Assembly: GCA_001244265.2 (NCBI GenBank)
Contig: LN717261.1
Coordinates: forward strand, 868,001-932,000
Origin: Microbotryum violaceum
Taxonomy: Eukaryota
DNA: 64,000 nt
Reading direction: 5' to 3'
The translations under genes and the position numbers were made by a program. This document shows, in pieces, positions 1-49,489 of this stretch. The notes beneath the pieces are model-generated. The model did not search any database. It was not told the DNA's origin and saw only the letters and a program-made list of their open reading frames with translations. The stretch's first letter is position 1. Every line of letters starts with the position of its first letter.

Positions 1-644
1 GCCGTGTGTTGGACTCCGTTGAATGGTTCGTTCGTTCGCGTTGGTCAAGATCTACGGCATGGCTCGGGAAGGAAGGTCGCTCGTTTCTGGTCAATATCCT
101 CGCGTCAAGGCGAGGCTCGTTTCGTTGTACTGGATCGCTTTTCTCTCGGCCCCGACGGCTCAACAGCCAGCACTCGAGATTCAGCCAAGGGAGGACATCA
201 GGCGCTGTCGGGGTGACGAGTAGCTGGGGCTTGGCTGCGGCCTGTTAGTCCCTGGGGACCTCTACCTCCGGCTTCGACCCCCTCCCTGGGCCCCTCGGGT
301 GTGTTCCCCTCCTTTCTGCCTTAGTATTCCTGGTTCTCCGTGTTTCCAGTCGTGACTTTCTGTATATTCTCCCCCTTCTTTCTCTAGGCGCTCTTGCCTG
401 GTTTTCGAGTATCTTCGCTCCCGCTTTTGGGACGTGAAGCGGCGGCAGTATTCACCGCCCGTTGGAGTCCGCGTTAGGTGCTCGGCGGGTTTTGATCTGC
501 GCAGCGCTCTTTGCGCGCAGGGGTTTGACTTTCACCCAACTGCTTGCCGTCGTTGCTTTATAATCCCTTTTAGCTCTTTTGTAGCGGTCCCAGCCAACCC
601 GAAGGATTGCAATTTATGAGCCCCAGTCAAAAAAAAAAAAAAAA
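1..644 (+). mobile_element. 3' end (3'UTR and poly(A)) of a probable non-LTR retrotransposon, truncated by the window edge
   Basis: No credible ORF. A pyrimidine-rich tract (~305-430) and a GC-rich self-complementary segment precede A16 at 629-644, which abuts LINE A. The layout matches the 3'UTRs of LINE A and B but the sequence differs. Confidence 0.5.
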
Positions 645-683
645 CTTTACTTCACTTCACTTCACTTCACTTCACTTCACTTC
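645..683 (+). repeat. (TTCAC)6 microsatellite at the 5' end of LINE A
   Basis: Read directly: ctttac followed by ttcac x6. Confidence 0.95.
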
Positions 684-739
684 GAAATCGCCCTACCGCA
701 GTCTTCGATACTCGAGTTAACAAGTGATACACCGACAAG

Positions 740-2972
740 ATGTCTACAGGAGACCCTGGGTCCCCACCGCCGGCACCGCGACCCCCGGTGTCCGCCACCG
801 GCGACCAGATCCCGATAAGCTCGAAGAAGACCCAAGTCACGGGCCCCGCCACCGCCGCACCCAACTATGCCGCCGCTGCGAGTCAGGCGACTCAGTCACC
901 TGAACAACAGCAACAACAACAACAGCGTGCCAAGGCTCTGGGCAGCCTCCTAAAAGCCATGGGTGCTGTACCCGGAAACCGCATGGATCGTTGGGTCCAG
1001 GCCATCTACTTCGCCGAACTCTACCCCGTCGCCACCGCCACATCGCTGAAATTCTCGGCCTTGAACGCGAACCGGTCTGTTGAGAACATCTTTGATTACG
1101 CCCTTGAAGTGACTCTGTCTCACCAGAGCGCCTCGCGAGCGTCTCATGCCGACAAGACCGATCTCGTGGCCTGCGTCACGAGGCTGTTATCGCCGATCTC
1201 TCCTATCTGCTTTGAGCCTGGAGTTCCTCTGCCGGACCACCTTGCAGCCTATCGACCACAGATCCTAGGCGTACAACATTCATCAATCCTGCGTAATGGG
1301 GCGGCTCACCATCGCGTTACGGTTGGGTTCGTCACCGGCGAGGCACGTGACGCTGCGCTTACGACGCCCCCTGCTCTCACTTGGCGATCGGCGAAGGCCC
1401 GCTTCGCGAAATCTCACAGGTTCCACCATAACATCGTCGAGCTTCGAATCAACGTCGGTGTTCAAGGAGTGCCTTCCATGGATGCCATCATCAAATCGTT
1501 CCAATTACTAGTACAGGACTTGTCAGGCAAGGGACATTCGTGCCAACTTGTGCAGGTTCTGCGCATTATCAGCGTGGACAACGCCTCGGCCTTTGCCCAC
1601 GTTGCCGGAGACTACTCAGCTTTCCTACACTTCGATGACGACTCCCTGTTCAAACGCCCTAACACGACCTTGAAAGAGATCCTACCTTCGAGAATCGGCC
1701 TTCCCACTCGAGGCATCCCCGTCACCGCCCTTCGCCATGACTATGAGAAGGAGGCGGCTTGCGGTAGGTGCCACTTCGTTGGTCACGTGGGAACCTGCGG
1801 ACTGGATCAGGAGAGCAAGCGAAAGGAGGCTCACAACGGCAACGGCAACGGCAACACTAACGCCAACAAGAACACCATCACCAACGACACCAACATTGTG
1901 GAGGCCGAGGCCCCCATTCCTGTGCCGGTTGTTAACAGCATCGCATCACAGAATCGCTTCGCCGGGCTCGAGGTTGAGGAGGGACAGGAGGAAGCGGTAA
2001 CTGGCCAGAGCGGACAGGGGCCAGAGGAATCGGGGGAGGAGGACGCTGGTGATAAGGCGGATGACGAGGACTCGGAGGACTCGGAGATGGAATCAGAGGC
2101 GACCGCGAAAACGGAGGTCATCAAACTTAAGAGCGAGGACGAGTCGGTTTTAGAGGACTGCGGAGGATCCGATGGAGAGGTGATTGATGAGGATGAGGTG
2201 ATGGCGGATGGAAGGGGCGAAACAGAAGGCAAGGTGGCGACGGAGATGGAGGAAGAGGAGGTGGCGACGGAGGTGGACGATGTGGACGAGGCAGGGGGAG
2301 CGACGAAAGCGGAGAACGCGGAAGCGACGGACTTAGGGGAGACGAACAGGCTGGACAATGACGACGACAGCGACGCAACAGCAACCGCCGCCACCGCTTC
2401 CCGCGAATCGACACCCCACGAACCAACCCCACCTTTGTCACCCGAAACTCTTGCCAAGTCGCTTCGCGAGGGGGAGGAGTGGGACAGGATCAGAGCTAAC
2501 TGGGTTGAGCAGGCACGACTCGAGCGGGACCAAAGCATCGAGAGAAGGCTCAACGCTGAAACCCCTTTGGTGCGTCACAACTTTGCCACGTGGGATGAGG
2601 ACGGTGAGATACGTTCCATCAATATCAGGGGACCGCTTCGAAGTTCAAAAAGCCGGTAATGAAGAGGTCGCAGACTGCGGCGGACCTCAGTGACCCGAGT
2701 GACGAACCGACCGACGCCAAGCGAGTGATCATCAAAGGGAAGAGCCGCGTCGTTGTCAAGGATGGAACAGAGGGGCGGAGGGTGACGAGGTCGATGTCAG
2801 CGGCGGCGGCGATGCCGGTTGGCGTGACGAAAGTGGACCGAGGGAAAGCAAAGGGGGTAGCCGAGGAGAAAAGATGGTCCGACCACGAGCCCGAGGACGA
2901 TGTCCTGCCCGCCCTCCCCTCTTTGAGGACGTCACCACCGCCAAGAGCGCTTCGACCTCAACTACCCATTAA
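740..2972 (+). CDS. LINE A ORF1 (gag-like, zinc knuckle [13 protein letters not shown], acidic tract); two -1 frameshifts in homopolymers
   Basis: ORFs 740-2659 and 2659-2979 align to the single ORF1 of copy B if one G is restored at ~2628-2631 and one C at ~2916-2919. The stop is then TAA at 2970-2972. Confidence 0.85.
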
Positions 2973-5900
2973 TGATTAAGCACACCATCATCACCTGGAA
3001 CGTGAGGAGGGGCATGGGGGTCCCGGAGAAACGACGTGACATTTACAACTACCTATCCCTTTTCAAAGCATCGGCCATTCTCATACAAGAGCACTTCATC
3101 AGACCGCACCTCTGGCAACTCATCAAGGACGAGTACAAGGGCAAGCTCTTCATCAACCAACATTGTCTGACTCTAATTTCGGCTGACTCCCCCTGATCGA
3201 CGCCGAGCTCTTGCGCACCCACTCGGCACTCGACGGCCGGCTCCTCGTCACGTCCTTTCGTCTGCGGGGCGACATCAAAATTCTAGAAATCAACAACGTT
3301 TACGCGCCCGTTGACCCAAAGCAACGAGCGAAATTCTTTGAAAAACTCTTATTTCACAAAACACAGAAATCCCACCTCCGACTCCTTGGCGGTGATCTCA
3401 ACGACTGCCCGCGCCCAGAAGTCGATCGGCGGAACCAAAGTCGGCGCGGCCACCACTGGCCAATCCTGATCGGCAAGCTCGACTCGGCCTACACGGACTG
3501 CATCCGCTACAAACACCCCATCACCCCATCCTTCACTCGACCTAATCCCAATCGCAAGCGACCCAACTCCTTCTCCCGGCTTGACTACTTTCTCCTGCAA
3601 CGGACACACCAAAAAAGACTCGATCAGGCCTCGACGATCTACGACTATTCCAAGGAGCTTTCCGATCACCGACCGGTCTTGATTGTGCTGGCTCTCTCAG
3701 ACGATCCTGATGCGACCCTCCCACAGCTCAGCCTACCTACCACATCAAACCAACTACATCGAATCAACACCACAACCTTTAAGACGGTGGAATTCCAGCG
3801 GATGATGGAAGGATGGTTGGAAGGGGCAAGCGGGGAGGAACCGGTGGGGGAGCTCGAGGTCATTCTGAAGGCGTGCAGGGATAGGGGTGGGGAGATGGCG
3901 AGGAGGCTGCATCGGGAGCGGACGGAACGGATGGAGTATTTGGTGGGGAGGGTTCAGGATCTGGAGGCGATACCGGAATGGGGGGAGGCGGAAACAGCAG
4001 AATGGACAAGGTCATCCGAGGAACTCAAGCGGGCGGGCGAGGAGCGCGCGCGCCAACTTCGGATCCGAGCCCACGTCCCCGAGATCGCCTCCGAGGAACG
4101 ACTGTCGCGGCCGGTTCACGCCAAGCTCGCGGCGCGGAACTCGGACTCCAAGATCACAGCACTGCGCTTGAGCAACGGAGAGCTAACGCATGACATTGAT
4201 GTCGCTCTTGACCACACGCAGGCGCATTTCCAGCGCCTCTACCACATCGAGCCTCGTGACCCGGACCGCGTCGACCGACTTCGGGACGAATTCCTCGCGC
4301 CGATCAGGGCGGCGCGGACTTGCGACGACCCGCGCTCGGATCCTCTCTTTCTGCGCCGACTCTCAGAATCGCAGATCGACTTACTCCAGCGACCAATCAC
4401 CGAGGACAAGGTCGTGGCCGCGATCGGGACGACGCACCCGGGGCGATCGCCGGGACCGTCGGGCGTGCCCTACGAACTCTACCAGACCGCACCCAAGGCG
4501 TGGGCCAAGGTGCTGACCAAGGCCTACCACGCGATGATAGAGCGAGGCTCACTCTCTCCCAAGCAGGGCCAAGGACTCGTGCGCCTCATCTTCAAGCGAC
4601 ACAAGAAGAATGCCGATCGCGCCGAACTTTCGTCGTACCGGCCGATCACCCTGCGCGAGTGCGATTACAAGATCTTTACCAAGGTCTATGTCGCCCGTTT
4701 GAACCAAATTCTACCCGATCTCCTCCCGCCGCAGCAGCACGGATTCGTCAGGGACCGCCGATCGGCTGACGCTGCACTACACCTTCGTCTCCTGATCGAG
4801 GAAGTTGGCGCGCGCAGGACCGAGTTCCCCGCGGCCGCACTCTTATCTCTTGACCAATCGTCCGCCTACGACCTCGTCGAGCATGCCTGGATCTTTGCCA
4901 TCTTTGACGCTCTGGGCGCTCCTGCCACCTTTCTTCGCGTGCTGAGGATGCTCTACTCGGGTGACTCGACCTCGGCCCGCTACATCATCAATGGGTTCTT
5001 GACGGCGCCGGTACGACTGACGTGTGGGCTCGGCCAAGGGGACCCGGCGTCGTCGTCGGTCTGGGACATCGTGTTCCAGCCGTTTCTGGATGCTCTACAC
5101 CGTCGAAACATCGCGCTGAATCTCTCCATACCTGCACTTCATCCGTACCCACAGAGCCGCGCCATTACATCGCTTGCTTTTGCCGATGACGTTGTCGTCG
5201 CCGTCGCGGGCTTGGGGTCACTCAACTTGCTCGATGACCTGGCGCTCGACTGGAGGCATGCAACGAATGGCCGGCTCAACACGGACAAGACGGTCGTCCT
5301 ACCGATCGGACGCCGCTGGGACCCGGGGCAACGCCCGCTCGTCGTCAAGGCCGCAGGCGAGTCGCTCGAGTGGATCGGCCTCCCATTCGACCCGAGCGGC
5401 GACACCGAACTCGCCTACGCGAATCTCATCGAACGCCTCGAGGCGACGCTGGAAGGGGTTCAGCATCGCTGGCTCACACACCACACCCGTGCCTTTTACG
5501 TCAATCGGTACGCCATCCCCAAGATCCTGCACTTCCTTGCAGCCGACATCCCGCCGCCCGAAGTTGTCAAGAAGCTCAATGACATGCTCGTCGATTTCGT
5601 CCGTGGGGGCAAGGGCAGGACCAGCTACGGCAGAGATATCGTGTTCACAGCCAAGCTCAAGGGGGGACTCGGGGTGATCAGGATGCAGGACGTCGTGGAC
5701 GCGGTTGCGGCACGGATCTGGGACGTTCTTCTCGGCGGTTCGGGCGCGATCTGGCAAGGACTTGCGCGCGCGGCACTCCAGCGAGCTCAGTCCGACCTCG
5801 ACCTGGCCACCAATCTCTGGCCACATCCATCCACTCCCATCCCCAGCGACCTCCTTCCCCGATGGCGAGCAGCATTGGGGGTTCCGAAACAGCAAGACGC

Positions 5901-6989
5901 GCAGGTCAACCCGAGGACCTTGACCACCGCGAACCTGCTCGCGCTTCCCACCTTGCTCGGCAGCCTCCACACGCCCATCAGAGGGAGACAGACCATCGAC
6001 GCGGTTCATATACCTGACTACCTTCGTCTCCAGGGCTACCCGAAGGTGGCGGATCTCTACCGGCGCGAGTTGTATGCGGGTGGGGGGTTTCACCTTTGGA
6101 CGCCGCCGGCGGATGTGCTCGGCGACAACAGCGAGTACGATCGACGCGGGCTCCCGCATCGACTGGCAATCGCGGCCTGGTACCGGTTCACTGTCGATCG
6201 ACACAAGAACACGCCCTTGGCGGTGGCGGTGGCGGCGGGACGGCTCAACGTGCCCCCCGGATCGGCACCAGCGCACCGCTCGAGGCGATTCTCCCCAAGC
6301 CCGTGGCCCGCTTCGCAATGGAGCAGCGCCTTCCGGACCCGGTGCTTCCACAGCAGGCGAGCCAGTACAATCTGCTGAACATGGCTCGACCGTACACCAT
6401 CCGTCGCATCCGCCGGGTCCTGAACGCGAAGGCCTTTACCAACACGCTCGGGCTCAAGGGACCACCGCAGCCGGACGACCTCAGGAGCTTTTGGAAGGCG
6501 GTCAACTCGAAGGCACTGACGGCGAGGGAGAGGGAAGTTTGGTTCAAGCTGATTCTCCGCTTCACCCCGACGCGCAAGCTGCAACACCAACAGAATCACG
6601 ACACTTCTCCCGCGTGCCTCGTCTGCGAAGCGCCGGTGGACGACACCGACCACTACTTTTTCGGCTGCGTTGACTCGCGGAATGTCTGGATCGCGGCAAG
6701 GGGCGTGCTCTGCGACGCACTCGGGTGCGACACGATTGAGGACGCCCAGTACACGACACTGCAACGGCTCTTTGGCCTCCCCAAGCTCAAGGCCAAGCTC
6801 AGCGAACAGGAAGGGGCGGGCAGGACGATCGAGATCTTCACGGGGATGGTTTTGGAGATGATCAGCAGTGGGAGATGGAGGATGCAGAAGCACGGGACGA
6901 GGATGGAAAGCGTGGAGAGGAGGAGAATGATACTGGAGGAGAGGATGAAGTTGAGGACGGGAGGAGCAAGGGGCGGGCGAGGGCAGTAG
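2972..6989 (+). CDS. LINE A ORF2: AP endonuclease, reverse transcriptase and C-terminal CCHC; two -1 frameshifts
   Basis: APE motifs TWNVR, QEH, GDLN, SRLDYF, SDHRP. RT motifs YRPITL, GQGDP, FADD. C-terminal CLVC...HYFFGC. Frame breaks fall in C runs at ~3189-3193 and ~6253-6258. Confidence 0.93.
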
Positions 6990-7653
6990 AGGCTGGGTTC
7001 GATTTCCCCCCCACCACACCCCACACACACACACCATCACGCTTCATCTTCCAACAAAACACTGTATACTAAATATCGTGCTTTCATCTTTCATCTATTA
7101 CAGGTCTGCCTTCGTTGCTCATGGACCGGCTCGCGATTTGAGATTGACTCGACGGTGACTCGCGCTCTTTGGCTTCGGGGTTCTGAGTCAAGGGAGGGAT
7201 CAGCAGACACAGGCGGAAAGTCGGCTTTGAGGGGCCAGGGACTGCTGAGGTGGAGGTTTTGAGGGGCCTCCACCGCGTCTTGTTGTGACCGAGCATAGAC
7301 TTGGGACTTCGCGGGTCAGGGTAGCTGCGCAGTCGCTCTCTTGTCTTTGTCTCGACCGAGTTGGGAAGTGACGGCGGGGTGGGTCTCTTGTCGTTAGTCA
7401 ATTGTTTTTGTACTCTTTCTCTTTCTCTCTCTCATTCGTCTCCTGGGGGGAGCAACCGCTTGGCTCGGGCACTTGAATCCCAAGTATCGGATTGGTGGAC
7501 ACCGGCCCGTTTCTCGCATCTTGCGGGCGGTTTGTGTTATCATCGTCGACTTCCATCTAGTTTTTTCCGTAGGCCAAATAGGGGGAACATGAATTGGGGG
7601 CAATATGATGAACAGTTTCTACAAAAATAAAAATAAAAAATGGGACTAACTTT

Positions 7654-7687
<34 letters not shown>

Positions 7688-7726
7688 TTCACTTTCGAAG
7701 CCGAAATTGCCCCACGCCACACCTTC

Positions 7727-8070
7727 GTATTTTCTAAAATACCAGTTACAGGCACTAAAATTAAAAATCAAGCAAAATAGAAATATGTAGATAAGGCTCC
7801 AATAGTAATAAAAGGCTCTTCAACGTGTTGACTACCAATATACATTAATACAAAGAAGTTGGCCACAAAAAGTCAGAACATGAATCGACTTAGCGGTCTG
7901 AATTGGTTTCCACGAACTCTACTTACATCTAATACTGGCATTAGAAGAAGAATTAATAATGAGAAGAACATACATAGTACTCCAATAATTTTTGAAGGAA
8001 TAGATCGTAAAATAGCATAGAAAGGTAATAAATATCATTCCGGTACACCTTTTATTATCATAATGGGTTA
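7727..8070 (-). pseudogene. cob: NUMT: mitochondrial cytochrome b C-terminal exon fragment plus a short probable intron end
   Basis: With TGA=Trp the minus strand reads [107 protein letters not shown] (PEWY motif). The segment is AT-rich. Confidence 0.97.
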
Positions 8071-8098
8071 CGCCAACAAGTGATACACAGAGAGATCC

Positions 8099-10383
8099 AT
8101 GCAGACCGGCGATCCCGGCTCGGCCCCTGGGGCCAGAGCCCCACCACCGCCGGCGTCCGCGCCGACGAGCCTCCCGATTGCGGGGACGAAGGAGACGCAA
8201 GCCACCCAGGTCGCTGGCCGAACCGCGACCTACGCCGCCGCTACCAACTCTTCAGTGGTCTCGAATGAGACTCCTGCTCAGCAACAAGATCGACTTGCAC
8301 GTCTACAGGCTTTGCCCGGCATTCTGGCGGCAATTCAGGCCGTCCCCGGAAACCGAGCGGACCGTTTCGTTCAGGCCATCTTTGCGACCCCTGATTTCCC
8401 GTCCACGGTTGCTACTGCGCTCAAGTTCTCAGCTCTCAACGCCACAAGGAACATAATCAACCCGTTCGCCAACGCGCTCGAGGTGAGCCTGTCTCACCAA
8501 AGCACGGGGAGGGCATCTGCGACCGACAAAGGGGAGCTCGTTGCGTGCGTACGCACCCTGCTCTCGCCCAACACGCCGATCTGCTTTGACACCGGAGTCC
8601 CGCTTTCTGGTGATCTCGAAGCTTTCATGCCTCGGATCACCGGTCTCCAACACTCATCGACTTTCCGCACCGGGGTCCTGCACCATCGCATCACGGTCGG
8701 ATTCGTCTCGGCCGAGGCCCGTGACACGGCCCTTGCGTCCGCCCCCATGCTCGTCTGGAACTCGGCCAACGCGCGCTTTGCCAAGGCCCACCCCTTCCAC
8801 CGCAACATGCTCGAGATGCGCATCAATGTTGGTGTGGTCAGACCCCCTTCCAAGGAACAGATCGTCGCGGCGTTCCAGTCCATCGTTCAACAGCTCTCCA
8901 CCAAAGGTCACTCGTGCCACCTTGTGCAGGTTTTGCGCGTCATTCACGTCGACACCGCCAAGGCTTACGCCCACACCGTCGGTGACTTCTCGGCGTTCAT
9001 CCACTTCGATGACGCCTCTTTGTTCCAGCACCCGACTACTACGCTCAAGGAGATTCTCCCTTCGAGGATGGACTTGCCCACCCGCGGCCTTGACGTGACC
9101 GTCGTCCGACACGACTACGAAAAGGAGGCACCGTGCGCGCGCTGCCACTTTGCAGGTCACGTGGAGAGGTGCCCCCTGATGCAGGCCGCGAATAGAAAGG
9201 AGGCTGAGGACCTGGCCAGGCACGCGGTGATGAGAGGCGCCGGAATGGTGGGGGGAGGAGAGCAGACAGGAGTGGGTCGAGCGGCCACCACCACCACCAA
9301 CAACATCCGCCCCACTGCCAACAACAACAACACCTCCGAGGTGGTGGCCCCTAGCCGCGCCCTCGGAACCGACCAACTCGAATCGCGGAACCGATTTGCG
9401 GGGCTCGAGGTCGAAGGAGGACAGGAGGATGACATCGAGGAGGAGGTTGCAGGAAAGGAGGGCGAGGAAAAGGAGCAGGTCGAAGAAGGAGACGAGGATA
9501 CGGGCGCCAAGGCGGACGACGAGGATTCGGACTCGGATGGGAACGCCGGAGCGGGCATCGACAAGGCGGGAGGCGACGGCAAGGACGACGACAAGGACAA
9601 CGACGAGCACGACGACAAGGACGAACAGGACGACAGCTCGGAGGGAAGCGAACGAAGGGGGGATGACGTGATGAAAGATGGAGCAGAGGAGGAGGACGAA
9701 GGGATGGAGACGGAGGTGGAAGAAGAGGTCGAACAGGAACAGGGAGTACAGGACGACAGCATCATGATCATCGACGACGGCCAAACGACGATCACCACGG
9801 TTTCCCGCGAGTCGACTCCTCGGAGTCCCTCGTGGCCTCCACTATCTCCGGAGACGTTGGCAAAGTCGCTGCGCGAGGGTGCGGCGTGGGACCGAGCTAA
9901 CGCCGAAGCTGCTGCACGTTTCCAAGCAGAAAAGGAGGCGATCATCAGCGCCCAACTCGACGCGGAGGAACCGCTCGTTCGCCACCAATTTGCAGAATGG
10001 GGTCAGGAAGATGGACAACTGCGATTCATCAACATTCGTGGCACCGGCTCCCGGTCGAACAAGAAGATGAAGAGGTCGCAAACGGTGGCCGATCTCAGCG
10101 ATCCGAGCGACGACCCGGTCGATGTCAAGCGCGTTCTGAACAGGGTCAAAGGTCGAGCAGGAAAGGAGGTAGCGGGTCAGGGGAAGAGGGTGACGAGGTC
10201 GATGTCGGCGGCGGCGGCGGCGATGCAGGTCGAGGGGGCCAAGGCGAAAGCGGAGAAGGGTAAAGGGGTGGAGGAGGAGAAGCGCTGGTCCGACCACGAG
10301 CCCGAGGATGACATTCTCCCCGAATTCCCACTCTTTGAGGACGACACTACCGCCAAGAGCACGTCTACATCGTCTACCCAATA

Positions 10384-10384
<1 letters not shown>
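8099..10384 (+). CDS. LINE B ORF1, intact 761 aa (zinc knuckle [13 protein letters not shown])
   Basis: Uninterrupted ORF homologous to A ORF1. Confidence 0.9.
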
Positions 10385-14419
<4,035 letters not shown>

Positions 14420-16662
14420 AGGCTGGGTTCGACTTTCCCCCCACCACCACCACACACACGCACCAAATTCTCGTGACATCATTTTCTCCTACTGTACACT
14501 AAATAGATCGCTTTCATCTTTCATTTGTTACAGGTTCACCGTTGCGGATCATGGACCATCTCGCGATTTGGCGTCGACTCGGTGTGGCTCGCGCTCTTCG
14601 GCTTCGGGGTTCTGAGTCAAGGGAGGGATCAGCGGACACAGGCAGAAAGTCGGCTTTGAGGGGCCAGGGACTGCCGAGGGGGAGGTTTTGAGGGACCTTC
14701 ACCGCGTCTTGTTGTGACTGAGCAGAGACTTGGAGCGTCGAGGGTCGTGGTGGTTGCGCAGTCGTGGTCTTGTCTTCGTCTCGACCGAGTGGGAAGTGGC
14801 TGTGGGGTGGGCCTTCTGTCGTTAGTACATTTCTTTTCTTTCTTTTTTCTCTTCATCTCTCTTTCTCTCTCTCATTAGTCTCTTGGGGGGAGCAACCGCT
14901 TGGCTAGGGCATTTGAATCCGAATCTCGGATTGGTGGACTTGGCTCGTTTCTCGCACTTTTGCGGGCGGTTTGTGTTATCATCGTAGTCTTCCATCTAGT
15001 TTTTCCGTAGGCCAAAACAGGGGGAACAGGAACTGGGGGCAATATGATGAACGTTTTCTACAAAAAAAAAAAAAAAAAAGCCATGGCGGGCGGACTGGTG
15101 CACGGTCACATTGACTTCTACTACAACATCATCCCATGCAGGCCTTGATCGATGCCTTCGATTGATTATTGCCGCTCACCAACATGAACATGACGATCGC
15201 CGAGCTCCTCGCCTTCGATGTCGCTCCCGCCGACGTGTCTCTTCACATCGAGTTGTCCAAAGACGAGCTCACCCACTACTCGACCTTATCATCTACTCGA
15301 GGCCATTGAGAAGGCAAACAGCTTCTCACGAACAATCGTCTACCAAGCTCAACTATCGAAATTTTGGTCTAAGCTCATGCGTGTTTGGTTCTACACAGCC
15401 CACACACTTGAAACTTCCGCCTCAAGTTGTCGATGCTCGCGATACCAATTTCTCACTGAACTGGCCAACCTGATTGCTCATCAAGCTGCTCATAAGTGTA
15501 GCCACCTCGAGCTGTTCTACTCAAGGGAGGCCGATGGACTCGAGCGACTCAACTCGCGGAGAGGCAGGCGTAGGGGTTAGCAATACAGAGAAAGGACGCA
15601 GTACAACACATTCAAGCGTCTTGAAAGGGTTGGTACAGTCCATGGGACCATCTCGCTGCGAAGACACGGCGGGCACGACGAGGAGCTTGAACGAGATTCA
15701 GAAGAATGCCTATATTGAGGATGGCCGCATTCAAGTGAGTTGTTGCTGGATTTAGGAACGAAGGCAACTGGATCTAATGTTTTGCCGGTCCTAACGTTTA
15801 GGAAAAGCTCCCTGAGAGAGACAAGCAGTATGGAGCGCTAGCACAACGCTATCCTCATTTGGATCGCTTGACGGAGCTGTAACCGCTGCCACACCATTGG
15901 AGATTGGATCTCTGATCTGCTTTGGCCTCAAGTGTGGCATGCATTCACTCAGCTGCGAGCAAACTGTTTATGGAGAAGAAGCGCTGTCTATCGGAATTGG
16001 TACGCGCGTTGTTTTGAGTGGCAGTTGAGAAAGTTCTCGTTTGACACAAGTATTGTGTCCTACAGTGCGACACATCTACAGCAGAGTGACACCAAACCAC
16101 TGCAACCAAGACACGCTCGCCTCGTTGGTTCTACTCTCAAATGTCGTCGTACAGGAGCTTCGCCTCATCAAGAAAACATGCTATTCCACACACCTCATTG
16201 ATGGCACTATGCCGTTCCGCATGATTGATGGTCGACAGGTCATCGAGTCATTAGGCCCGTCAACGACTACATATCGTTCAACCACGGACCTTACCTCGTG
16301 TTACCCGGACGAGCGCCTAATCAGCACGAGCGCACATGCCGAGCAAAGATTTGCCGCCCTTCGGAGCGTGCCCTGCCTGCGAGATGCCGCCGGCAGAACC
16401 TCTACAAGCCGCACAAATGCCACCGCGGAAACAAGGAGCTCAACTTCAGCAAAAAGGAAGTCTGACAACGAAGCAGCGAGCCAGCCAGCAAAGCAAGGAA
16501 GGCTTGTTTGAAGCGTGGAGCCACGCGCAACACCAGCCGAAGCGACGCGCGCCGCGAGCCACTTTCGATAGGCCGCCGCGCGCCCGCAAACGCTCGGAAC
16601 GCGTTTTCGAGGACTTTTAAGCAATGTTTGTAGCATGTAGAACACATTTTGATAATATCTCC

Positions 16663-18312: not shown

Positions 18313-18651
18313 CAATTCAGACAAAATCCTATTCTTGCCTGTAAACAAATTCACCATTGATTGTCATTTCAACTCCAAGATGCCAGTCCATGTTATTCCG
18401 AATCGTCACATTACTTAACCCTACGAATTTGCCAAGAGAGTTGAAAGAGTTGGATTTAGATAACACAGTAGTCATATCACTACCTAACGCCTGAGATTTA
18501 CTCTGTAACTCTACATTAGTGTCAAAATCATTTTCAGGCTTTTACCTTCGAATAAAAGTTAAACGCTTTTTTTTGCATTTTTTGATTAATCAAGCGCCCA
18601 GCTCCTTTTTTTATTCTATTTTTTGCGAGCAAAAAATAGAATAAAAAGGGG
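18313..18651. other. 339-bp AT-rich foreign insert in the Copia RT (possible mitochondrial DNA)
   Basis: Removing it rejoins [17 protein letters not shown] in frame. It ends in a long A/T hairpin at 18604-18650. Confidence 0.75.
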
Positions 18652-20085
18652 AAGACCAAGCGCGACGCACACGGTGATGTCACAGGGCGGAAGGCACGTC
18701 TCGTAGCGCAAGGTAACCGCCAGCGCGACGGCATCGACTTCTCGGAGACTTTCGCACCCGTCGCCCGTTTCTCCTCCATTCGCTGCCTCCTTGCTCTTGC
18801 CGCTACCAATGGTTATCACGTTCATCAGGCCGACATCGACAAGGCTTACCTGCACGGCGAGCTCGATCATGACATCTGGATGACGACGCCACGAGGTTTC
18901 GACTTCCCGAGCGATAAGGTTCTCCGGCTGCGGCGCTCAATCTACGGCCTCAAGCAGGCCGGTCGCATCTGGAATCGCCACATTGACACATCACTCAGGA
19001 GTCTAGGGTACAAGTCAATGGGCACTGATCACTGCGTTTACTCTCGCATTGATGATCAGCAGCGGCCCCACTACATTGCCTTGTATGTCGACGATCTCCT
19101 CATTGTCAGCCCCGCCCTCGACGAGATCGAACGTATCATCTCCGGCCTTGAACAGCGATACGGCGTTAAACGACTCGGCCCCGCGGAGTACATCCTCGGC
19201 ATCCAAATTCGCCGCCTGGACGACGGCTCCATTGCCCTATCCCAGGAGCGGTACATCATGGACGTGCTTGCCCGCTTTCACTTCGACACCACAACACGCG
19301 GCGCTACGGTGCCAATGACGCCCGGCCTCTCGCTCACGGCAGTTCCGGGTCAGGGAACGGAGCGCATTCGGTCGTGGTACCTACAGGCCATCGGCTCCCT
19401 CCTTTACATCTCCCTGGGCACTCGACCCGACATTGCTTTCGCCGTCTCGTACTTGTCCCGTTTCGCCAACAACCCCGGCCGCCGCCATTGGATTGCCGTC
19501 AAACACGTCTTTCGTTACCTTCGCGCCACGTACCGCGACGAGCTTCTCTACGCCCGCGGTCCAGCCAAAGTCACGGGTGTGGTCGGTTATTCCGACGCGA
19601 ACTGGGGCGCCTGCGTCGACACATCCATCTCGACAATGGGTTACGTCTTTTACTTGGCTGGCTCCGCCGTCTCTTGGTCGTCGAAGCGTCAGACTCGGGT
19701 AGCGGATTCCACCACCGATGCCGAGTACCTGGCCTTGTCGCACGCTGGTAAGGAAGCGATCTACCTTACCCAACTCCTCTCCGAGCTCCACGTTCGCCCT
19801 ATCGATGCAGCTCATATCTTCACCGACAACGAGGCCGCGACCGCCGTCACTCACGACCCCGTTCGCACCTCCGGCACCCGGCACATCCGCCTCCGCGAGC
19901 ATTTCGTCCGCGACATGGTCAATCGAGGCGATGTCTCCCTCTCACACGTTGGCACAGCAAACATGGTTGCGGGCCTATTCACCAAAGCGCTAGGTCCCAA
20001 GATTTTTGGTACACATTGCTATGCTCTAGGCCTCCGGACGCGGCACCCACGGCTCAAGTCTACCTCGCGTTCGCGTGGGGGGGGG

Positions 20086-27700: not shown

Positions 27701-27990
27701 TCGACTCTCCTGACCACTCGCGCGAGTTGTAGCGGAATAGTGGTTCGAGTTGCAGCAAGACGAAGGACAACATTGGTGTAGGAGTTGTTAAACAAATACC
27801 TCAAGCGGTGAAAACCCAGCCTTCTGGGGAAAACCGCAAGAAATTGATCTAAACGGAGGAGAGTCCGAACTTCTTGGTGATACACAGGGATGGTGGGCGG
27901 GATGACAATTGGGAGCTTTGCGACCCAAGCTTCTGGATGTCAGTCGGCTACAACTGATGATGGAGCAAGTCCACTGATCGTCTCAGCATA
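27701..27990 (-). repeat. ~290-bp repeat, inverted copy of 40828-41128
   Basis: Reverse-complement alignment by eye along its whole length. Confidence 0.92.
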
Positions 27991-27992
27991 CC

Positions 27993-28508
27993 TTTATATA
28001 TTAATATATATAATATATATAATTATATATATATATATAATTATATATATTATATATATTAATATATATATATATAATTATATATATTATATATATAATT
28101 ATATATATATATATAATTATATATATTATATATATATTAATAATATATATATATAATTATATATATATTAATATATATATAATATATATAATTATATATA
28201 TTATATATATATTAATAATATATATATATAATTATATATATATTAATATATATATAATATATATAATTATATATATTATATATATATATAATTATATATA
28301 TATATATATATTAATAATATATATAATTATATATATATATTATTAATATATATATAATATATATAATTATATATTATATATATATATTAATAATATTATT
28401 AATATATATATAATATATATAATTATATATTATATATATATATTAATAATATATATATATAATATATAATTATATATATATATATTTGTATAAATATATA
28501 AATATATA
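27993..28508. repeat. ~515-bp almost pure A/T minisatellite built from (TA)n with AAT/TT interruptions
   Basis: Read directly; one G (near 28488) in the run. Confidence 0.97.
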
Positions 28509-28659
28509 GAAGACAGTTTCAAGGATAGTTTTAAGGATTCTCATTCTGCCGCCGCCTCCCCTCGGCCCCACACACTCGCGCCTCGCGCTCTTTCTCGCCG
28601 TCACACCGACTCGCGTTCGTCTCAAGCACGCGGTGTGCAAGATAAAGGGGGTGCCGAAC

Positions 28660-30910
28660 ATGTTCTTGCGCAAGAACAAAGCCCAAAAGCACAAACAGCT
28701 CCCTTCCGAAGCGTCCCTCGCGAGTTCGGTCGAAGCAGGCGGCGCACACGCTGCGGGGCAACATCCTCCTCATCAACCCGGAGCAGCAACAACAGCTGCA
28801 GCAGCAGCAGAGGGTACACCTGCCCAATCCCATCTGCAGCAGCAGCCTTCACAAGGTTCGACAACCGTTGGAAAGACCAAGTTTCAGCAGTATGTGCCGC
28901 AGACGAATTATGGTGGACAAGCTGGAGGAGCGCTCAATGGCCACGGACGAGCTTATTCGAACGGCAGTGGTGGCAGTGGTTCCGTAGGACCGAACGACAC
29001 AGGAGGAAACGGTACAGGCACAGGATCGGGTTCGGGTTCGGGTTCGGGTTCGATTTCGGGCAATAATCATGCGATGCAGGCCATCTTGGCCTATTCGGGC
29101 ACACCTTCCCCAGCTCCCGTCGCCGTGGGGCAAGGTCCAGTCTCGCCGCCGATTTCCCAGCACCCACAGGGGCAGTATTTGGTTGGCGATGAGGAATACA
29201 AGTCAGTGCTTACCAGTCTGGTGGCTGGGCGGATCGGGTTGATGACTGATTATGGGTGTGATTGCACAGCCGGCTGTTGAAGAACTATCGCCTCGCGCAT
29301 GAAAGGATCGAGGACCAGAGACAACAGCTATTGATGCAAGAACGATTAGTCAGTCTCGTCTGGAACTACAAAATCACCTTGTGCTGAGATAGGCGACTTG
29401 GACACTCAGAACGCGTCGTTGCGCAAACATGTCTCGTTGCTCGAAGGTGGGGAAGTCGCTGACGTCGCGGCTTCCGTCGTCGGGACCTCGACCGTCGATG
29501 ATTTCACCATCAAAAATAGCTCGTCAGGTGCGTTAACGCTTACTACAATCGGTCACATTCATTGGGAACTTGTTCTGACGACTCTCCTGTCATAGGCCTC
29601 GAGCGCCGCATCAACCGTTTCGCCGCCGACACGCTCAACTCGCGCGACTACTCTCGCAACCAACTCGCCTCGGCGATCTATGCCGACCTCCCCACCATCA
29701 CCCAATCCCCCTTCCTCAACTCGATACAGGGATTCGAAGATCCCGAATCGGGGATCATCTTACAGAGTTTGATTCGACATGCGCTATCGACTCTGTTGGC
29801 GGATGGGATTGTGAATTCATTGTTGGTCACCGATTCAGAGGAGGCGAATGAGGAATTGACAAGGTTGCATGCGACCTTGTTTGATCGTAAGCTCATGCAG
29901 TGGACGCGAACGAGGTACACGTGAAAGTGAATGATGCTGATTCTGGACGCGAATATCATTATTGCCCCCACCTCACGTTAGGTGAACCCCTCGTCGCTTC
30001 CGTTTGGCGAAGGCAAACCTTTTCAGCTTCCCTCACCCACCTCTCCGAACGAACATGTTTCTCCCTCCTCTCACGCCATATTCCTGCCATATCTTACCTC
30101 TTGAATCCATCCCCAACCCATCTATCCCCCTCTCTATTGACCATGTTGGAAGCCTTCCATCTCTATGCGAGGACGTTGCATTCTTCGGCGACGGCGATGG
30201 GAGGTGGAGGTGGAGTGGAGGGGTCGGGGTTTTATAGGGCTTATGTACCGCAGATTGGGACCTTATTGGATCCGGGGAGGTTGGAGTTGATTAAAAGGTG
30301 CTATAGAACCGAGAGAGGTACGTTCGGGCGAACCGAAAGCGGGTGGATGTTGCGAAGAACGAGAACGAGAACGAGACGAGCAGAGCTGACTTGGGGGATA
30401 GTTTTTATCGTTACCCTTCCTTTTCTTGCAGGTGAACCCGAACGCGTTGGAGCCTGCTTATTCCCAGGACTTGTTAAAGAATCGGCTATTGAGAACTCAC
30501 CCTTCACTTCTCCCGAACCTGGTCTAACTGCATCACCGAACTTGAACGACCGTTTGGGAAATGGAATCCCTCTCATTTCCGGAATGAGTCTGAGTCTGGG
30601 TTTGGGAACGGCCGTTTCGAGTCCTATGACTTCGAAGATGAATGGGGGTAGCTCGGTTCACATGAGTGTAGCGGGGAGTAGAGGGTTGGGAACTAGATCG
30701 AGGCGGGAGACGAGGATCGTGGTCGTGAGGAGGGCGCAGGTGATTTGCGAGTGAGTTTCGGCGTATTCATTGGGGTGCGGGGGGGGGGGGGGGCATTGGG
30801 CTATAGACTAGAACCCCGATTTTGAAAACTGATGAACTTGTTCTTTCCCTCCTCCCGTTAGGTGCGCACTCGCTGCCGCCCATACCGTCTCCATGTCAAC
30901 TCAGAACTGA
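28660..30910 (+). CDS. Multi-exon hypothetical protein (low-complexity N-terminus, coiled-coil, helical C-terminal region)
   Basis: ATG at 28660. GT-AG introns (e.g. 29202-29269, 30751-30861) link the ORF pieces: RLLKNYRLAHERIEDQRQQL, LERRINRFAAD, ASVWRRQTF, VGACLFPGLVK, VRRAQVICECAL. Stop at 30908-30910. Confidence 0.75.
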
Positions 30911-38020: not shown

Positions 38021-38093
38021 CGGCTGGACCAGGAGTCGAACCTGGCTCGTTTCCATTAATCGGAAAAGCTTTGACCCACTAAGCTATCCGGCC
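38021..38093 (-). tRNA. tRNA-like gene with anticodon loop GA-TTA-AT (TTA in the anticodon position, non-canonical loop)
   Basis: Folds as GGCCGGA TA GCTT AGTGGGTCA AAGC T TTTCC GATTAAT GGAAA CGAG CCAGG TTCGACT CCTGG TCCAGCC G. It has A and B boxes and a T4 run 9 nt downstream. Confidence 0.8.
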
Positions 38094-40700: not shown

Positions 40701-40827
40701 TTTTGTGCACTTTAGCGGTTTAGCGGCTCGAGATTTATTTAGTGCCATTTAGCAAAGTGGCAAAGTTGCTGATGGCACCAACCGCGCCCCAACTGTCTTA
40801 TACAGTGTCTTGCCTTTGCCGCAAAGT

Positions 40828-41128
40828 TATGCTGAGACGATCAGTGGACTTGCTCCATCATCAGTTGCAGCCGACTGACATTCAGAAGCTTGGGTCGCAA
40901 AGCTCCCAATTGTCATCCCGCCCACCATCCCTGTGTATCACCAACTTGGAAGAAGTTCGGACTCTCTTCCGTTTAGATCAATCTCTTGCGGTTTTCCCCA
41001 GAGGGCTAGGTTTTCACCGCTTGAGGTATTTGTTTAACAACTCCTACACCACCAGCGTTGTCCTTCGTCTTGCTGCAACTCGAACCACTATTCCACTACG
41101 ACTCGCGCGAAGTGGTCAGGGGAGTCGA
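40828..41128 (+). repeat. ~300-bp repeat, inverted copy of 27701-27990
   Basis: Reverse-complement alignment to 27701-27990. Confidence 0.92.
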
Positions 41129-41420: not shown

Positions 41421-43817
41421 TCAACAAATCAAGTCTCTGAAAACGACCAACGACTGCTCACAAAGAGCCACCACGGAAACGGCAGATCCATTGGGCCGAC
41501 GAATCCCAATCACCCCCAGCAACGCACCATCAGAGGCCTCCCCTATCCTAAGTACCATCTGCTGACTCGTTCTGTCCTTCATATTCGCGGGCGCCCGATA
41601 TGCAAAGAGGTTGCGAGTCGATACTGTTGCACTGGGATCAACAGCTGAAGGTGAGGGGCTGTCGAAGGCGAGAACGGCTTGGTCGCTCACGTGTGTAACA
41701 AAACTCGCATTCGTCTTGGTCGCAAGCACGAACGCCAGAGCGGGGAACGTCGAGTGGTGCGTCCAGGTCGTCGACTTTGCATCTTTACTACTCGGACTCG
41801 GAGGTACGAATAAGGCTCCATCGACATCGTGCTTGATGACAAGCCCTGTCCGACTAAGCAATTCGGTGCGACTGTCGACAGTCGGAGACGATACAGCGAT
41901 GGGCAAGCCGGTGGAGAGGAGGCTGAAGTTGACCGTAGGATGCGGATGGTCGATCTGAGGCGTTGTAGACCACGCAGAGTCAATCCAGCTCACCACAAGA
42001 GGCTTTCCTACTTCACCGTCGACTTCGACGTCCATTTCGTCACCGTTCAGAGTCACTGGGGCGCCGTCTCCGAAGCCTTGGTCTTGGATAATGCCTTTGC
42101 CTCCATGTAATTCAGCAAAATCGCGGTGCCATTGCTCCATTCCATCCACGATGCCTGCAAGTTCCGATGCGTCCAGCGTTTCAGGCACATTCTCGAGCCA
42201 CAGTTGGTACCTGGCTTCGCGGGTGCCGTCATCTCCGCAATTGTCGTCATCCTGCATCTCGACAATGCGGGTTTCAGCGGCGTCAGAAAAAGTCTCTCGG
42301 GGCCGCGCCCCCTGCGCGGCCGGAAGAGTGGGTGCAAAGACATCGGACCATCGTGTTCCGGGATGAGCCTTCTCGAGATGCATACTCAAGATGCCGTACG
42401 TCGAATCTCGGCCCTCGGCTTCGCGATCAAAGGTCCAAACGCTGGTATGAGGATCGATCAGATCCCATAGCTTTTTGTGAGAGATGCGTAGGAGTGTGCC
42501 ATCGGGAGCGTTGAGCGGCCAGCGTAGGGATGCTCGGGCACTTGTTATGAAGAGGGTGATGTACTGCCTGGAGAACGTTATCTTTATACTCGAAGTCAGG
42601 ACGTCCGACGGAATCGCAAAAGCGACGGTGACGGAATCCGAATCTTGTGTCCACGAAAACGGCTGGGGCAAAACGTGGCACGCGTCCTTGTTCCTCGAAA
42701 TTTCACTACTTCGGTGCGGACCCTCCCTCTGGTCGTTTTCGGCGACGTTCATTTCCGTAGAGCCCCGTTCAGTTCCTGTTTGCTCTGACACCAAAGGGGA
42801 TGGCTGGATCGGCGCGGTGGAGCCGATGCAATATCGCTGGAGGGCCGGTTCGAAATGCACGAAGTGCGGCAGGTCATCCCCAGTGGCTCGCCAAAGCACC
42901 GTGAGAGGCACTGGATCGCTTATTCCGGTCGTCTCGGTGCTGTCCAGGCGCACACAAATGTATTTGAAGATCGTAGTGGAAGCCAGTCGAACTCGGGTCC
43001 CTGGCGCCGGCGCAAACCCGGTGTTGGGGTTGTGGCTTGCACCGGCCGAGCTTGGAGGCCCAGTAGTCCTCGTAGACTTGATGGCCACAGATAGCAATGC
43101 AAAGATTGAGCTCGAGGATGTATCCTCGTTTGCAGCGTGCAATTGGAACGGCGTAGCACGATCGACATCGAGTTGCTCCTCGAGCCGCAACTCATAGGTC
43201 GCCTCGATCGTGCCTTTCCAGTTGAGGGCGTTCTTCTCGACCGCAATTGAGGACAAGCGACCATCCCCGCTCGATACGACCCAACGACGAGGTGCTATTG
43301 CCACGCCTGCGGCATATTCCAACTCATCCCGAGTGTAGGTCAAGCTTGCTGTGGGTGAGGCGAGCGTGAGCAGGTGATGGAACTTGGGCCCGTGTTCTAC
43401 AGCCTGCATCCGGCATCGGCAAGCGAAACAAGAACCTAATCAGATCAAGGGTATTATGAAGTAACAACAGCATTCAGGGGGCGATACAGCATGAGAGTGG
43501 CGAGCTCCCCCCGTTTGAGGACAACTCACCTGACCGAACTCGATCGCTAGCACACGGCCCGCAGCGTCGATATAGACTGCATCGCCGTCCAGTCCAGGGT
43601 AGAGGTGACTGTGTCGTGCCCGATACTGAACTTGGTGGTACGATAGTCGAGTGTGGTCCGCAAGGGTCCGAACCCCAAGGCCCGGTTCTGGCAATGCGAA
43701 GGACAAAGAGCTCGAGCCGGCAGGCGGTGACGTCAACTTGTACGACTCGAATTTGGGGTTTAACAGTTCCCTTCGCGTCGAGAACGAGAGCGAGTCATTC
43801 TCGTATGTCGAGCGCAT
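41421..43817 (-). CDS. NUDCD1: NudC domain-containing protein 1 homolog, two exons (43817-43530, 43403-41421)
   Basis: LLNPKFESYKL at the N-terminus, CS/p23 domain PFSWTQDSDSVTVAF, HHSTFPALAFVLATK; GTGAGT...CAG intron at 43529-43404. Confidence 0.85.
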
Positions 43818-46800: not shown

Positions 46801-47994
46801 CCGCTATTTCAGTCTCTCAGCTAATAGAAGTCATAGCGGCAGTAAGTTCTGGACTCGGGCGTCTCGACGTCGAGTCATTCCTGGCGGCCACGAGAGGAGG
46901 GAGGCTAAAGCTGGCTTACGGGAGGGAGAGGAAGAGGATGTGATTTCGAGGGGCCTTCACTTTTGCGCCGCAAAGACTCGGAAAATGACGAGCATTGGTG
47001 GGATCGGTAAGGCAGCATTTGGAAGGAAGACCGAGCCCGATATGCGGAGGAAGCGGTGAAGGGGAATGAACAGAAAGCAGCGGTTTGAACTGCCGGGACT
47101 TTTGAGGGGAGTTTTCTTCTTGTTTTCAGAAAAACTTCCAGGATCCAATACAAATTTTTATTGTCTCTCACTTTTTGCGTGTTTCAAGTCTCGTTTGGCA
47201 TTGTCTCCAGCCTCCGACCTCAGCGTTTTGTTCTCGAACTCGGTCTCGCTTCTCGATTCAACCCCCACTGCAGTCTCTCGTGTCTCTCGCCTTGGCGTCT
47301 TAAAAGCTATTAGTCATACCTTAGCCTTTTATTGTCATATCATATTTGATCGCTATACCATAATGCGAGCAGCGTAGCTGGAGGATTTTACAGATGCCTC
47401 GCTCTTTGGGGACAAGACTGGCTCCTTTTTTCGTTCTCGCACGGGCCATGACCTCATGGCATCTTGTTCTTTTTCTTTTTCTTCTTCGCCCCATCCTCTG
47501 GCCCCGTGGTCGCCCCGCTCTCGATGATCGCGTAAGCCGCCTTCTTCTTCCTCCGCCTCGTGAATTTCTTACGCTTGGTCTTGGTGTCTTTTTCCTTGTC
47601 TTTCTCTACTAGGGACGCTGGATTTGCTTGTGGTAGTGGCGATGTGTGTCACAGGGAGCCCATGCTTGAAGCGATGCCGATGAGTGCAAGGCGGTGGGGG
47701 AGGTGTAAGGCCCGTGCGCCTGGGCCTTAGGAAGAGGGGACGCGCGCCTGTGTAATACTCTGTAGTTACTCAAAGGCCCGATGCGCGTCTGGCCTTAGGC
47801 ATTGCCGGAAAGTAGGGCCTCTCTTCCTTTCCGACCAGTTTATTCTTTGGAATACATACTTGTATCCTGTCACCTGCAAGGCCCGACGCTGGGGCCTTAC
47901 ATTTTGTTTTTGACATCCGATATAAGAATTCGCCAAGAACACTCCGTCACCGCTTCAAACCGGCTCGACGTACACACAACGCAGGTCGTTTGCC

Positions 47995-48243
47995 GCACAC
48001 CCCGCACGACACTTGTCGTTTGTCATACAGAGCCGTCTCTGTTCGCCGTCCACATCACACGTCGCAAGACGTTCGCCACACCCCCGCACGACTCGCGTCG
48101 TTTGTCATACAGAGCCGTCTCTGTTCGCCGTCCACATCACACGTCGCAAGACGTTCGCCACACCCCCGCACGACTCGCGTCGTTTGTCATACAGAGCCGT
48201 CTCTGTTCGCCGTCCACATCATACGTCGCAAGACGTTCGCCGC
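47995..48243 (+). repeat. Three 82-bp tandem repeats in the leader of the gag-only element
   Basis: TGTCATACAG recurs at 48021, 48103 and 48185. Confidence 0.92.
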
Positions 48244-48562
48244 ATTGCTTACACGACTTGGTCGTTCGCCGTCACACACAACTGCTGAGGTTGTTCGCCG
48301 TTTACGCGACCGTCGTCGCTCGTCCGGCCTTTTTCTTTTCACTTCGCACGCGACCGCCACCGTTGCTCGCCGAACGCGCCCCTCCGTCGCTCGCCCGCAC
48401 GGTTTCGTTTCTTTTTTTGCTTCGCACGCAATCGCCGCCACCCGCCCGCGCCCATCCGTCGCCGACGCCCCGCTTTCCAATCTGGCCCCACAAACCAGAA
48501 ACAGCAAGGATCAGGGACCCCCACCGAACAAGGACGCTCCGCCGCATCTCGTACCAAAGTCG

Positions 48563-49489
48563 ATGCCGAAGATGTCGGACCGAGCGCCTACACGACTCCA
48601 CATGCCAGAGCTCAAGGCACCGTTTACGGCGGAGGACGTCATCCTCTGGCTAGGCGACTGCGAGGACGCAATCGAGGCATTTGGGGATCTCAAGCGTTCC
48701 GATGAGACGTTGACGGTCGTTCGACAAATCAGGGAAGCTGGCATGAAAATGCAGGGCGAAGGGAAAATTTGGTGGAATCAGCACAGGGATGAACTGAAGG
48801 CATTGACGACATGGGATGCCTTTGCGGCTGAGGTGAGGGAACGGTTCCTGGACTCGGGCTTTGTGCTCACCGCCGAGCACGACTTCTACCGTACGCGACA
48901 AGGGTCGGATTCTTTCACTACGTACGCTGCGAAGCTAGCGAGTCGGCGCGCAACCTTGGGTATTGGCAAGGACGGGGGAAAGTTCATCAATGACGACCAA
49001 TTCAAACGACACTTGCTACATCACGCCAACGACCTACTGTATGCGCGTACCACCTCAACTGCCGGCTTTACACTCTCAACATTCACAGTGAACTCGCTCA
49101 TTGGACACATGACGGCGGTCGCTTCCTCGCTGGGACTCGAGTGGAAAGGTCAAGTGTCCGTCACCAACTCCCGTATCACTCGCTCGCCACGGGATCTCAA
49201 ATCAAACATGGCAAGGCACACACCATTGACAGCTGAGGTCCGACAACAGTGCATTGATGAGGGTCGCGGCTTCAACTGCCGGGAAATGGGGCATAATATT
49301 TGCAAGTGCCCAAAGACGACAGGCGGGACAATTGGGGACCACCCGGATCAACTCAACTTCATGGGCAACCAGGCATACCGTCAACCATGGGGTTCCGACT
49401 CAAGTGACTCGGAATTGGACAAGGCGTTTGAGAATGAATGGCTGGGAGGATCTGAGAAAGAAGAGGAGGATGAAGAAGAGAAGAAGTAG
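48563..49489 (+). CDS. Retrotransposon Gag (capsid-like region, degenerate zinc knuckle, acidic tail)
   Basis: GKIWW..LTTWDAFAAEVRERF..RQGSDSFTTYAAKL; GFNCREMGHNICKC. Confidence 0.85.
   Translation: MPKMSDRAPTRLHMPELKAPFTAEDVILWLGDCEDAIEAFGDLKRSDETLTVVRQIREAGMKMQGEGKIWWNQHRDELKALTTWDAFAAEVRERFLDSGFVLTAEHDFYRTRQGSDSFTTYAAKLASRRATLGIGKDGGKFINDDQFKRHLLHHANDLLYARTTSTAGFTLSTFTVNSLIGHMTAVASSLGLEWKGQVSVTNSRITRSPRDLKSNMARHTPLTAEVRQQCIDEGRGFNCREMGHNICKCPKTTGGTIGDHPDQLNFMGNQAYRQPWGSDSSDSELDKAFENEWLGGSEKEEEDEEEKK

Follow-up and report, generated by a model that had tools for sequence, protein, structure and literature searches.

In yeast, Ricchetti and colleagues reportedly described in 1999 the repair of chromosome breaks with mitochondrial DNA (mtDNA). 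LINEs are known to pick up extra sequence at their 5' junctions, and chimeras or transductions are formed at LINE 5' ends by template switching, for example the U6/L1 chimeras. In fungal mitochondria, group I introns of the cytochrome b gene (cob) can lie directly before the Val codon of the motif VPEWY, a site which we take to be that of intron bI5 of S. cerevisiae and probably the locus cobP823. In passages of PMC12570222 and PMC13491011, cobP823 is the name of a group I intron locus in ascomycetes and in the basidiomycete Suillus. According to Hazkani-Covo and Covo (2008; PMC2567098), primate numts are put into natural breaks of the chromosomes by NHEJ; microhomology is involved, and often nothing is deleted.

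The locus presented here is a short piece of cob in the leader of a LINE of an anther-smut fungus. Like the NUMTs made by NHEJ in primates and yeast, it is a short mtDNA piece in non-coding nuclear DNA, with no target-site duplication and no nuclear function. It differs from them in nothing of substance; the target is a LINE leader and the fragment spans an apparent intron-exon junction. With the template-switch chimeras of LINE 5' ends it shares foreign sequence near the LINE 5' end, but here the foreign piece lies inside the leader in antisense orientation, and it is of organelle DNA type, including non-exon sequence. It is of a known kind, an ordinary NUMT in the leader of a dead LINE, a further example which opens no new question.

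Nuclear context and the host LINEs

A minus-strand ORF of the window (the whole stretch of DNA analysed, 64 kb), at 41424-43439, matches MVLG_06612 of Microbotryum lychnidis-dioicae p1A1 Lamole with 100% identity across 98% of its length; its identity to M. intermedium is 72%. Therefore the window is nuclear DNA of the anther-smut fungus M. lychnidis-dioicae. Transposon sequence is abundant in it, including copia-type and gypsy-type domains. Passages of the genome paper of Perlin et al. 2015 (PMC4469406) give a mitochondrial contig of 97 kb and a LINE share of 7% of the TE sequence, and these passages have no mention of NUMTs. The literature retrieved on Microbotryum and NUMTs was a coffee-rust study, which does not concern this locus.

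Two LINEs, A and B, stand head to tail on the plus strand (Table 1). In their alignment, 5046 columns show 78.4% identity and a further 699 show 68%. LINE B extends from about 7641/7649 to 15079, and its ORF2 is read in at least two overlapping frames, 10447-13218 (endonuclease, RT) and 12839-14416 (zf-RVT), with at least one frameshift. Because ORF2 is split between frames in both copies, neither A nor B looks autonomous.

Table 1. Positions of the cob insert, its junctions and the parts of the two LINEs within the window.
Feature	Position	Strand	Remarks
LINE A	644..7640	+	ORF1 740-2659; ORF2 pieces 3187-6375 (endonuclease, RT) and 6018-6986 (zf-RVT); leader without insert
(ACTTC)8 microsatellite, LINE A 5' end	644-683	+	TRF; same place as in B
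A-rich tail of LINE A	7623-7640	+	followed by 9 bases TGGGACTAA, then the B microsatellite
(ACTTTC)8 microsatellite, LINE B 5' end	7649..7696	+	TRF
LINE B leader upstream of insert	7697..7729	+	aligns with A 684-712
Left junction CGTA	7726..7729	.	fits both the LINE leader (A: CTTCGATAC) and the cob continuation (..AAT ACG = N T; relatives ENT)
Cytochrome b last-exon fragment	7730..8047	-	106 codons (7729-8046) and T at 8047; Pfam, identity to relatives, TGA=Trp
Non-exon AT-rich bases, 23 nt ending in G	8048..8070	-	TAA and PIMIIKG upstream of V; the outer 4-11 bases (8060-8070) may be LINE leader
LINE B leader downstream of insert	8071..8098	+	holds AACAAGTGATACAC, common to A at 719-732
LINE B ORF1	8099..10384	+	761 aa, intact, no Pfam family; start MQTGDPGS, in A MSTGDPGS
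LINE B ORF2 region	10447..14416	+	Exo_endo_phos, RVT_1, zf-RVT; at least 2 overlapping frames
LINE B poly(A) tail, 18 A	15062..15079	+	unrelated DNA follows

Apart from the insert the leaders are about 56-61 nt long, and the insert stands 33 nt past the B microsatellite and 28 nt before the ATG of B ORF1. Both leaders are closed by AACAAGTGATACAC, which occurs exactly twice in the window against 0.2 occurrences expected by chance. When the insert is skipped, the B leader ...CTTCG-TAC----GCCAACAAGTGATACAC aligns with ...CTTCGATACTCGAGTTAACAAGTGATACAC of A and at most a few bases are missing; this comparison uses pairwise alignments, and a MAFFT alignment of the three LINE junctions set the gap poorly. 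The restored match with the short 5'UTR of A had been proposed in an earlier reading made from the letters of the window (the sequence-only reading), and we find the same, with no more than a few bases lost.

This clean interruption also bears on a possible artefact of library making or assembly, in which a chimeric read of mitochondrial origin entered the nuclear contig. mtDNA is present in high copy in every library, so such a read could be suspected, but the block is situated between two adjacent leader bases with neither side disturbed. It is just 341 bp within 64 kb of contiguous, repeat-rich sequence, and a random chimera is not expected to restore a clean alignment. We regard an artefact of this sort as very unlikely.

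Extent and junctions of the insert

The insert appears as an AT-rich block with sharp limits: the G+C content is 0.31 for 7727-8070 versus 0.57 for 1 kb on each side. A G+C scan of the whole window in 1-kb steps gave one other conspicuously AT-rich kilobase, 28001-29000. The left LINE flank ...CACCTTCGTA terminates at 7729 and the right flank opens with CGCCAACAAG at 8071, which leaves an insert of 341 bp at 7730-8070. The block that had first been delimited as 7727..8070 (about 342 bp) is thus real, but its left edge was set 3 bases too far to the left. Its placement within the LINE leader and antisense to the LINE was correctly read, with the cob frame on the minus strand and leader sequence on either side.

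TA closes both the left flank and the insert, so the extent may as well be given as 7728-8068. The same TA had been pointed out before as common to the junctions and we also see it; yet a 2-nt match has a chance of about 1/16, so the sharing is no evidence in itself. The uncertainty is at most 4 nt on the left, where CGTA also fits a cob continuation ..AAT ACG, and at most 11 nt on the right. The best-scoring cut point of the leader gives 8060-8070 (ATAATGGGTTA, compare ATACTCGAGTTA of A) to the LINE, and nearby cut points score about equally; the junction positions are uncertain because several close cut points score alike. The possible microhomologies at the junctions, TA, GTA or GTTA, are too short for statistical meaning.

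Cytochrome b content

With genetic code table 4, the minus strand has a frame of 176 codons free of stops at 7537..8067. The translation of 7729-8046 reads VPEWY...VPVTGILEN, with the end part FAWFLILVPVTGILEN, and matches Pfam PF00032 (Cytochrom_B_C) at E 1.9e-33 and 115 bits over residues 8-98 of a 113-residue translation. TGA is found at codons 4, 58 and 93 of the fragment, where the relatives have Trp, and GC3 is 0.21. The T at 8047 is taken as the third base of an Ile codon. Judged by the closest relative (P0200), which goes on ...ILENTLLDLAVSES..., the fragment stops about 20 codons before the end of cob. The unbroken cob frame with TGA=Trp, already seen from the letters, is therefore well borne out by 106 open codons under table 4, the Pfam match and three conserved Trp sites. 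Homology with a mitochondrial gene, a mitochondrial coding signature and nuclear DNA on both sides are found together, as expected of a NUMT.

An inference of selection or function from the open frame was considered and dropped, as the nuclear code puts three stops into the frame, and chance alone would leave a frame open at low divergence. With its three TGA stops under that code and its antisense placement in the LINE, the insert is functionless in the nucleus.

Relatives and source of the fragment

A search of longer proteins, of 187-2000 aa, scored 8000 candidates, of which 7800 matched at E<=0.001; the best identities, to cob of the Microbotryomycetes type, were 79-81%. Identity among the named relatives drops with taxonomic distance, from Sporidiobolaceae (79%) through Microbotryomycetes sp. 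JL221 (76%) and Dioszegia (73%) to Thamnidium (67%). The closest match came from a search among proteins of 62-198 aa: P0200, a protein of 101 aa, is identical to the fragment at 79 of 81 residues. At its two differences (M/I and Q/E) the window shares the residue with two other relatives, P0002 and P0003. No named Microbotryum cob was among the matches of these two protein searches. The top-scoring longer protein (P0001) was rejected as a distant match, a fused ORF that contains two pieces of cob with 59% identity.

A scan of genome contigs found no Microbotryum mtDNA. It kept 80 loci, 79 of them with bacterial or MAG labels (45-56% identity, judged by label), and one fungal mitochondrial contig with 66% amino acid identity. 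The latter (L001; BMQF01000050.1, 12948-19265, reversed) belongs to a 20.6-kb contig filed under Streptomyces fumigatiscleroticus. It carries an intron-split, fungal-type mitochondrial cob with TGA=Trp, and is presumably fungal contamination in a bacterial assembly.

The pattern of identities fits a source in the Microbotryales, and an origin from the fungus's own mitochondrion would fit these data as well.

Age and decay

Each of the 106 residues of the fragment also occurs in at least one of 223 relatives with full-length, ungapped alignments. At the columns conserved to at least 95%, the fragment agrees in 48 of 49, and the exception, I for L in SKIIG, is common to P0002. We compared this with a crude decay simulation (substitutions only, equal site rates, present sequence taken as ancestor), in which the proportion of copies with an open frame was still 0.63 at 5% divergence and 0.36 at 12%. 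Copies that combined an open frame with the absence of foreign residues were much rarer: 0.20 at 1%, 0.04 at 2% and 0.009 at 3%.

An open frame therefore says little about age, because 36% of the simulated copies are free of stops at 12% divergence. The lack of any residue foreign to the 223 relatives, taken with the simulation, means that change since the end of selection was about 2% or less. So the fragment has probably changed by no more than about 2% since its release from selection, under this simple model, and the NUMT is apparently young. The insertion had been called recent in the sequence-only reading; we agree on the ground that no decay is detectable (0 of 106 residues foreign), but the unbroken frame used there is a poor guide to age, with 36% of copies open at 12%.

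An old or foreign fragment would be a NUMT from an ancestor of the Microbotryum complex, or a piece from the mitochondrion of another fungus. The best named relatives are just 76-79% identical and the searches retrieved no Microbotryum cob; in addition P0200 differs at 2 of 81 residues, and at both of them the window keeps the residue of P0002 and P0003. These observations would suit such an origin. They are opposed by the lack of residues foreign to functional cob, with the simulation limiting neutral decay to about 2%, and by the pattern of identities, which suits a Microbotryales source. We consider an old or foreign fragment quite unlikely.

The non-exon end and the cob intron site

Upstream of the first Val codon the minus strand reads TAA-CCC-ATT-ATG-ATA-ATA-AAA-GGT (*PIMIIKG). 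After the G at 8048 come a T and the codons GTA CCG GAA TGA. In 219 of 221 relatives the cob exon continues at this place (at least 8 residues upstream of PEWY). In 218 the residues there read P..I[V/I/A], mostly TPPSIV or TPASIV, and P0263 is also exon-like. In the two others (P0177 and P0192) the sequence up to V bears no relation to cob, with the break at the same residue as in the window. The break residue, or one next to it, is also the start of three short ORFs (P0184, P0232 and P0258). The earlier statement that the sequence upstream is not cob exon and ends in G is in full agreement with these results.

In L001 an intron of about 1.84 kb without a long ORF occupies the break site, between the exons ...TPASI and VPEWY. 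Its upstream exon ends ...ACA CCA GCT TCG AT, and the downstream exon, C GTA CCT GAG TGG, comes after ...AACATG. This junction fits the group I rule (exon end T, intron end G) in phase 2 of an Ile codon. The intron of L001 also ends in G, and one pyrimidine stands before GTA in the window and in L001 alike, so the layout of the window (...AAAAGG / T GTA CCG GAA TGA) is as in L001. The terminal G is weak evidence, with a chance of about 1/4.

By this analogy the 23 nt probably come from the 3' end of a group I intron in cob. The exon break falls exactly at a cob intron site of other fungal mitogenomes, which makes it plausible that an intron-exon junction was copied from mtDNA. Compared with the known fungal cob group I intron before the Val of VPEWY, the likeness is that exon similarity ends at the same residue in L001, P0177 and P0192, and the difference is that the window has 23 nt only, in which the core (P3-P8) is not recognisable. 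The intron reading draws on these 23 nt (perhaps just 12), on a G expected one time in four and on analogy, and we find it reasonable. The 3' end of an intron as first suggested is thus upheld as regards the site, which is a known intron site (L001, P0177, P0192), but the "intron" is 23 nt, of which up to 11 possibly belong to the LINE leader. The origin from unspliced mtDNA, which had been offered together with it, points to no special feature, since any transfer at the DNA level gives unspliced sequence.

Rfam gave no group I intron model in window 7500-8300, where 23 nt of the putative intron are present and just a chance CRISPR-DR match (E 0.24) appeared; it also gave none in L001 1-3400, despite the intron of about 1.84 kb there. 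No Rfam family reached its gathering score in the whole window. For the mitogenome of the species, NC_020353, the PMC7487136 supplement records only a free GIY-YIG gene and, in intron 4 of cox1, a LAGLIDADG gene, with no cob intron carrying an endonuclease gene. These entries neither show nor exclude an ORF-less cob intron in NC_020353. Exon-start strings for the break site (6 + 5) had no match at the site in the supplement, and their single match there was rejected, as it belongs to a basidiomycete cob intron at a different site, 10 nt further downstream.

Origin of the insert

The insertion shows little or no loss of target, no target duplication and 0-4 nt of possible microhomology. An organelle fragment dropped between adjacent nuclear bases with little or no loss is the ground on which we favour capture by end joining. 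The mtDNA piece would have run from the last 23 nt or so of a cob group I intron into 106 codons of the last exon. A double-strand break may have occurred in the leader (about 60 nt) of a LINE B that was already in place, 28 nt before ORF1, and end-joining repair would then have captured the piece. We give a probability of roughly 0.8 to this ordinary NUMT, in which a 341-bp piece of the fungus's own mitochondrion was captured by end joining at a chromosome break in the leader of the resident LINE B.

Both capture at a break and capture during retrotransposition had been put forward as routes. Capture at a break is the reading that we prefer on inference from the junctions. In the other route, the RT would have switched from LINE B RNA to a mitochondrial transcript and back, or mtDNA would have served as filler at the 5' joining, and the nearness of the insert to the LINE 5' end (about 80 nt from the unit start) speaks in its favour. 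The homologous leader, including the 5' microsatellite, flanks the insert, though, so two switches are needed, the second one back to the adjacent base of the same RNA. Sequence added by template switching would stand at the very 5' end of the LINE and share its sense; this insert is not at that position, and cob here is antisense. The fragment also has non-exon sequence, and therefore mature cob mRNA was not the template. We judge capture during retrotransposition to be highly improbable.

Consequences for LINE B and for cob-based work

The insert makes the leader of LINE B about sixfold longer and adds four ATGs to it, at 7785, 7880 (with an upstream ORF of 46 codons), 7959 and 8063, whereas the A leader has none. 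The sequence-only reading had also supposed that transcription of B could spread the insert. This does not hold up well: onward spread from copy B is unlikely, we infer, because its ORF2 is broken, by at least one frameshift, and because of the ATGs that the insert brings into the leader.

The insert might instead have been gained by a LINE active at that time and copied along with it, so that several Microbotryum LINE copies would carry the same antisense cob piece. This is a far-fetched possibility. If it is true, it would be a case of NUMT amplification by LINEs, and the LINE promoter would drive synthesis of an RNA that is antisense to the pre-mRNA of mitochondrial cob. In a milder variant the 23 nt would be the fossil of a cob intron that is now lost from the mitogenome, or restricted to some strains; if the mitogenome lacks the intron, the insert would record intron turnover.

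For the ordinary NUMT that we prefer, a nuclear look-alike of cob could mislead cob-based typing, or the calling of fungicide-resistance sites, from total DNA of this fungus. Its presence or absence, if scored across Microbotryum species and mating-type haplotypes, would give a clean dated marker in a repeat-rich region.

Other features of the window

In positions 1-15079 of the window, three elements ending in poly(A) follow one another head to tail on the plus strand: a 3' end with 16 A at 629-644 comes first, then LINEs A and B. Each new unit starts 0-9 bp from the previous tail with its own 5' microsatellite, (ACTTC)8 or (ACTTTC)8, and the 3' flank of LINE B is without such a repeat. The 3' end of the first element is unrelated to the 3' ends of A and B at E<1e-10. 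As A and B are just 78% identical and the first 3' end is unrelated, these are separate insertions and not a duplication. It suggests a preference for insertion just upstream of an existing copy. In the literature on template switching and head-to-tail LINE arrays, nothing specific was found.

An AT-rich block of about 220 bp (18420-18650, G+C 0.33) splits a copia-type polyprotein, with the integrase ORF ending at 18418 and the RT ORF starting at 18640. The block ends in a near-perfect hairpin of about 20 bp (18605-18652). It has no Pfam match at E<=5 (code 4), and its Rfam matches were weak, sub-threshold hairpin matches only. A second organelle fragment, non-coding in this case, is one possibility for it, and a small non-autonomous element is another.

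An almost pure T/A tract of 514 bp is located at 27995-28508 (TRF period 2, 267 copies, 72% matches), and the G+C content is 0.085 over the 620 bases of 27941-28560. The segment of 295 bp directly left of the tract (27701-27995) has an inverted copy, 92% identical, at 40823-41128. At 38021-38093 on the minus strand ARAGORN reported a "tRNA-Stop" with anticodon TTA; no Rfam tRNA reached the gathering score in the window, and the call is probably spurious or a decayed tRNA-like relic. A unit of 82 bp is repeated 3.3 times with 94% identity at 47973-48241, in or beside a retrotransposon gag ORF (47816-49486).
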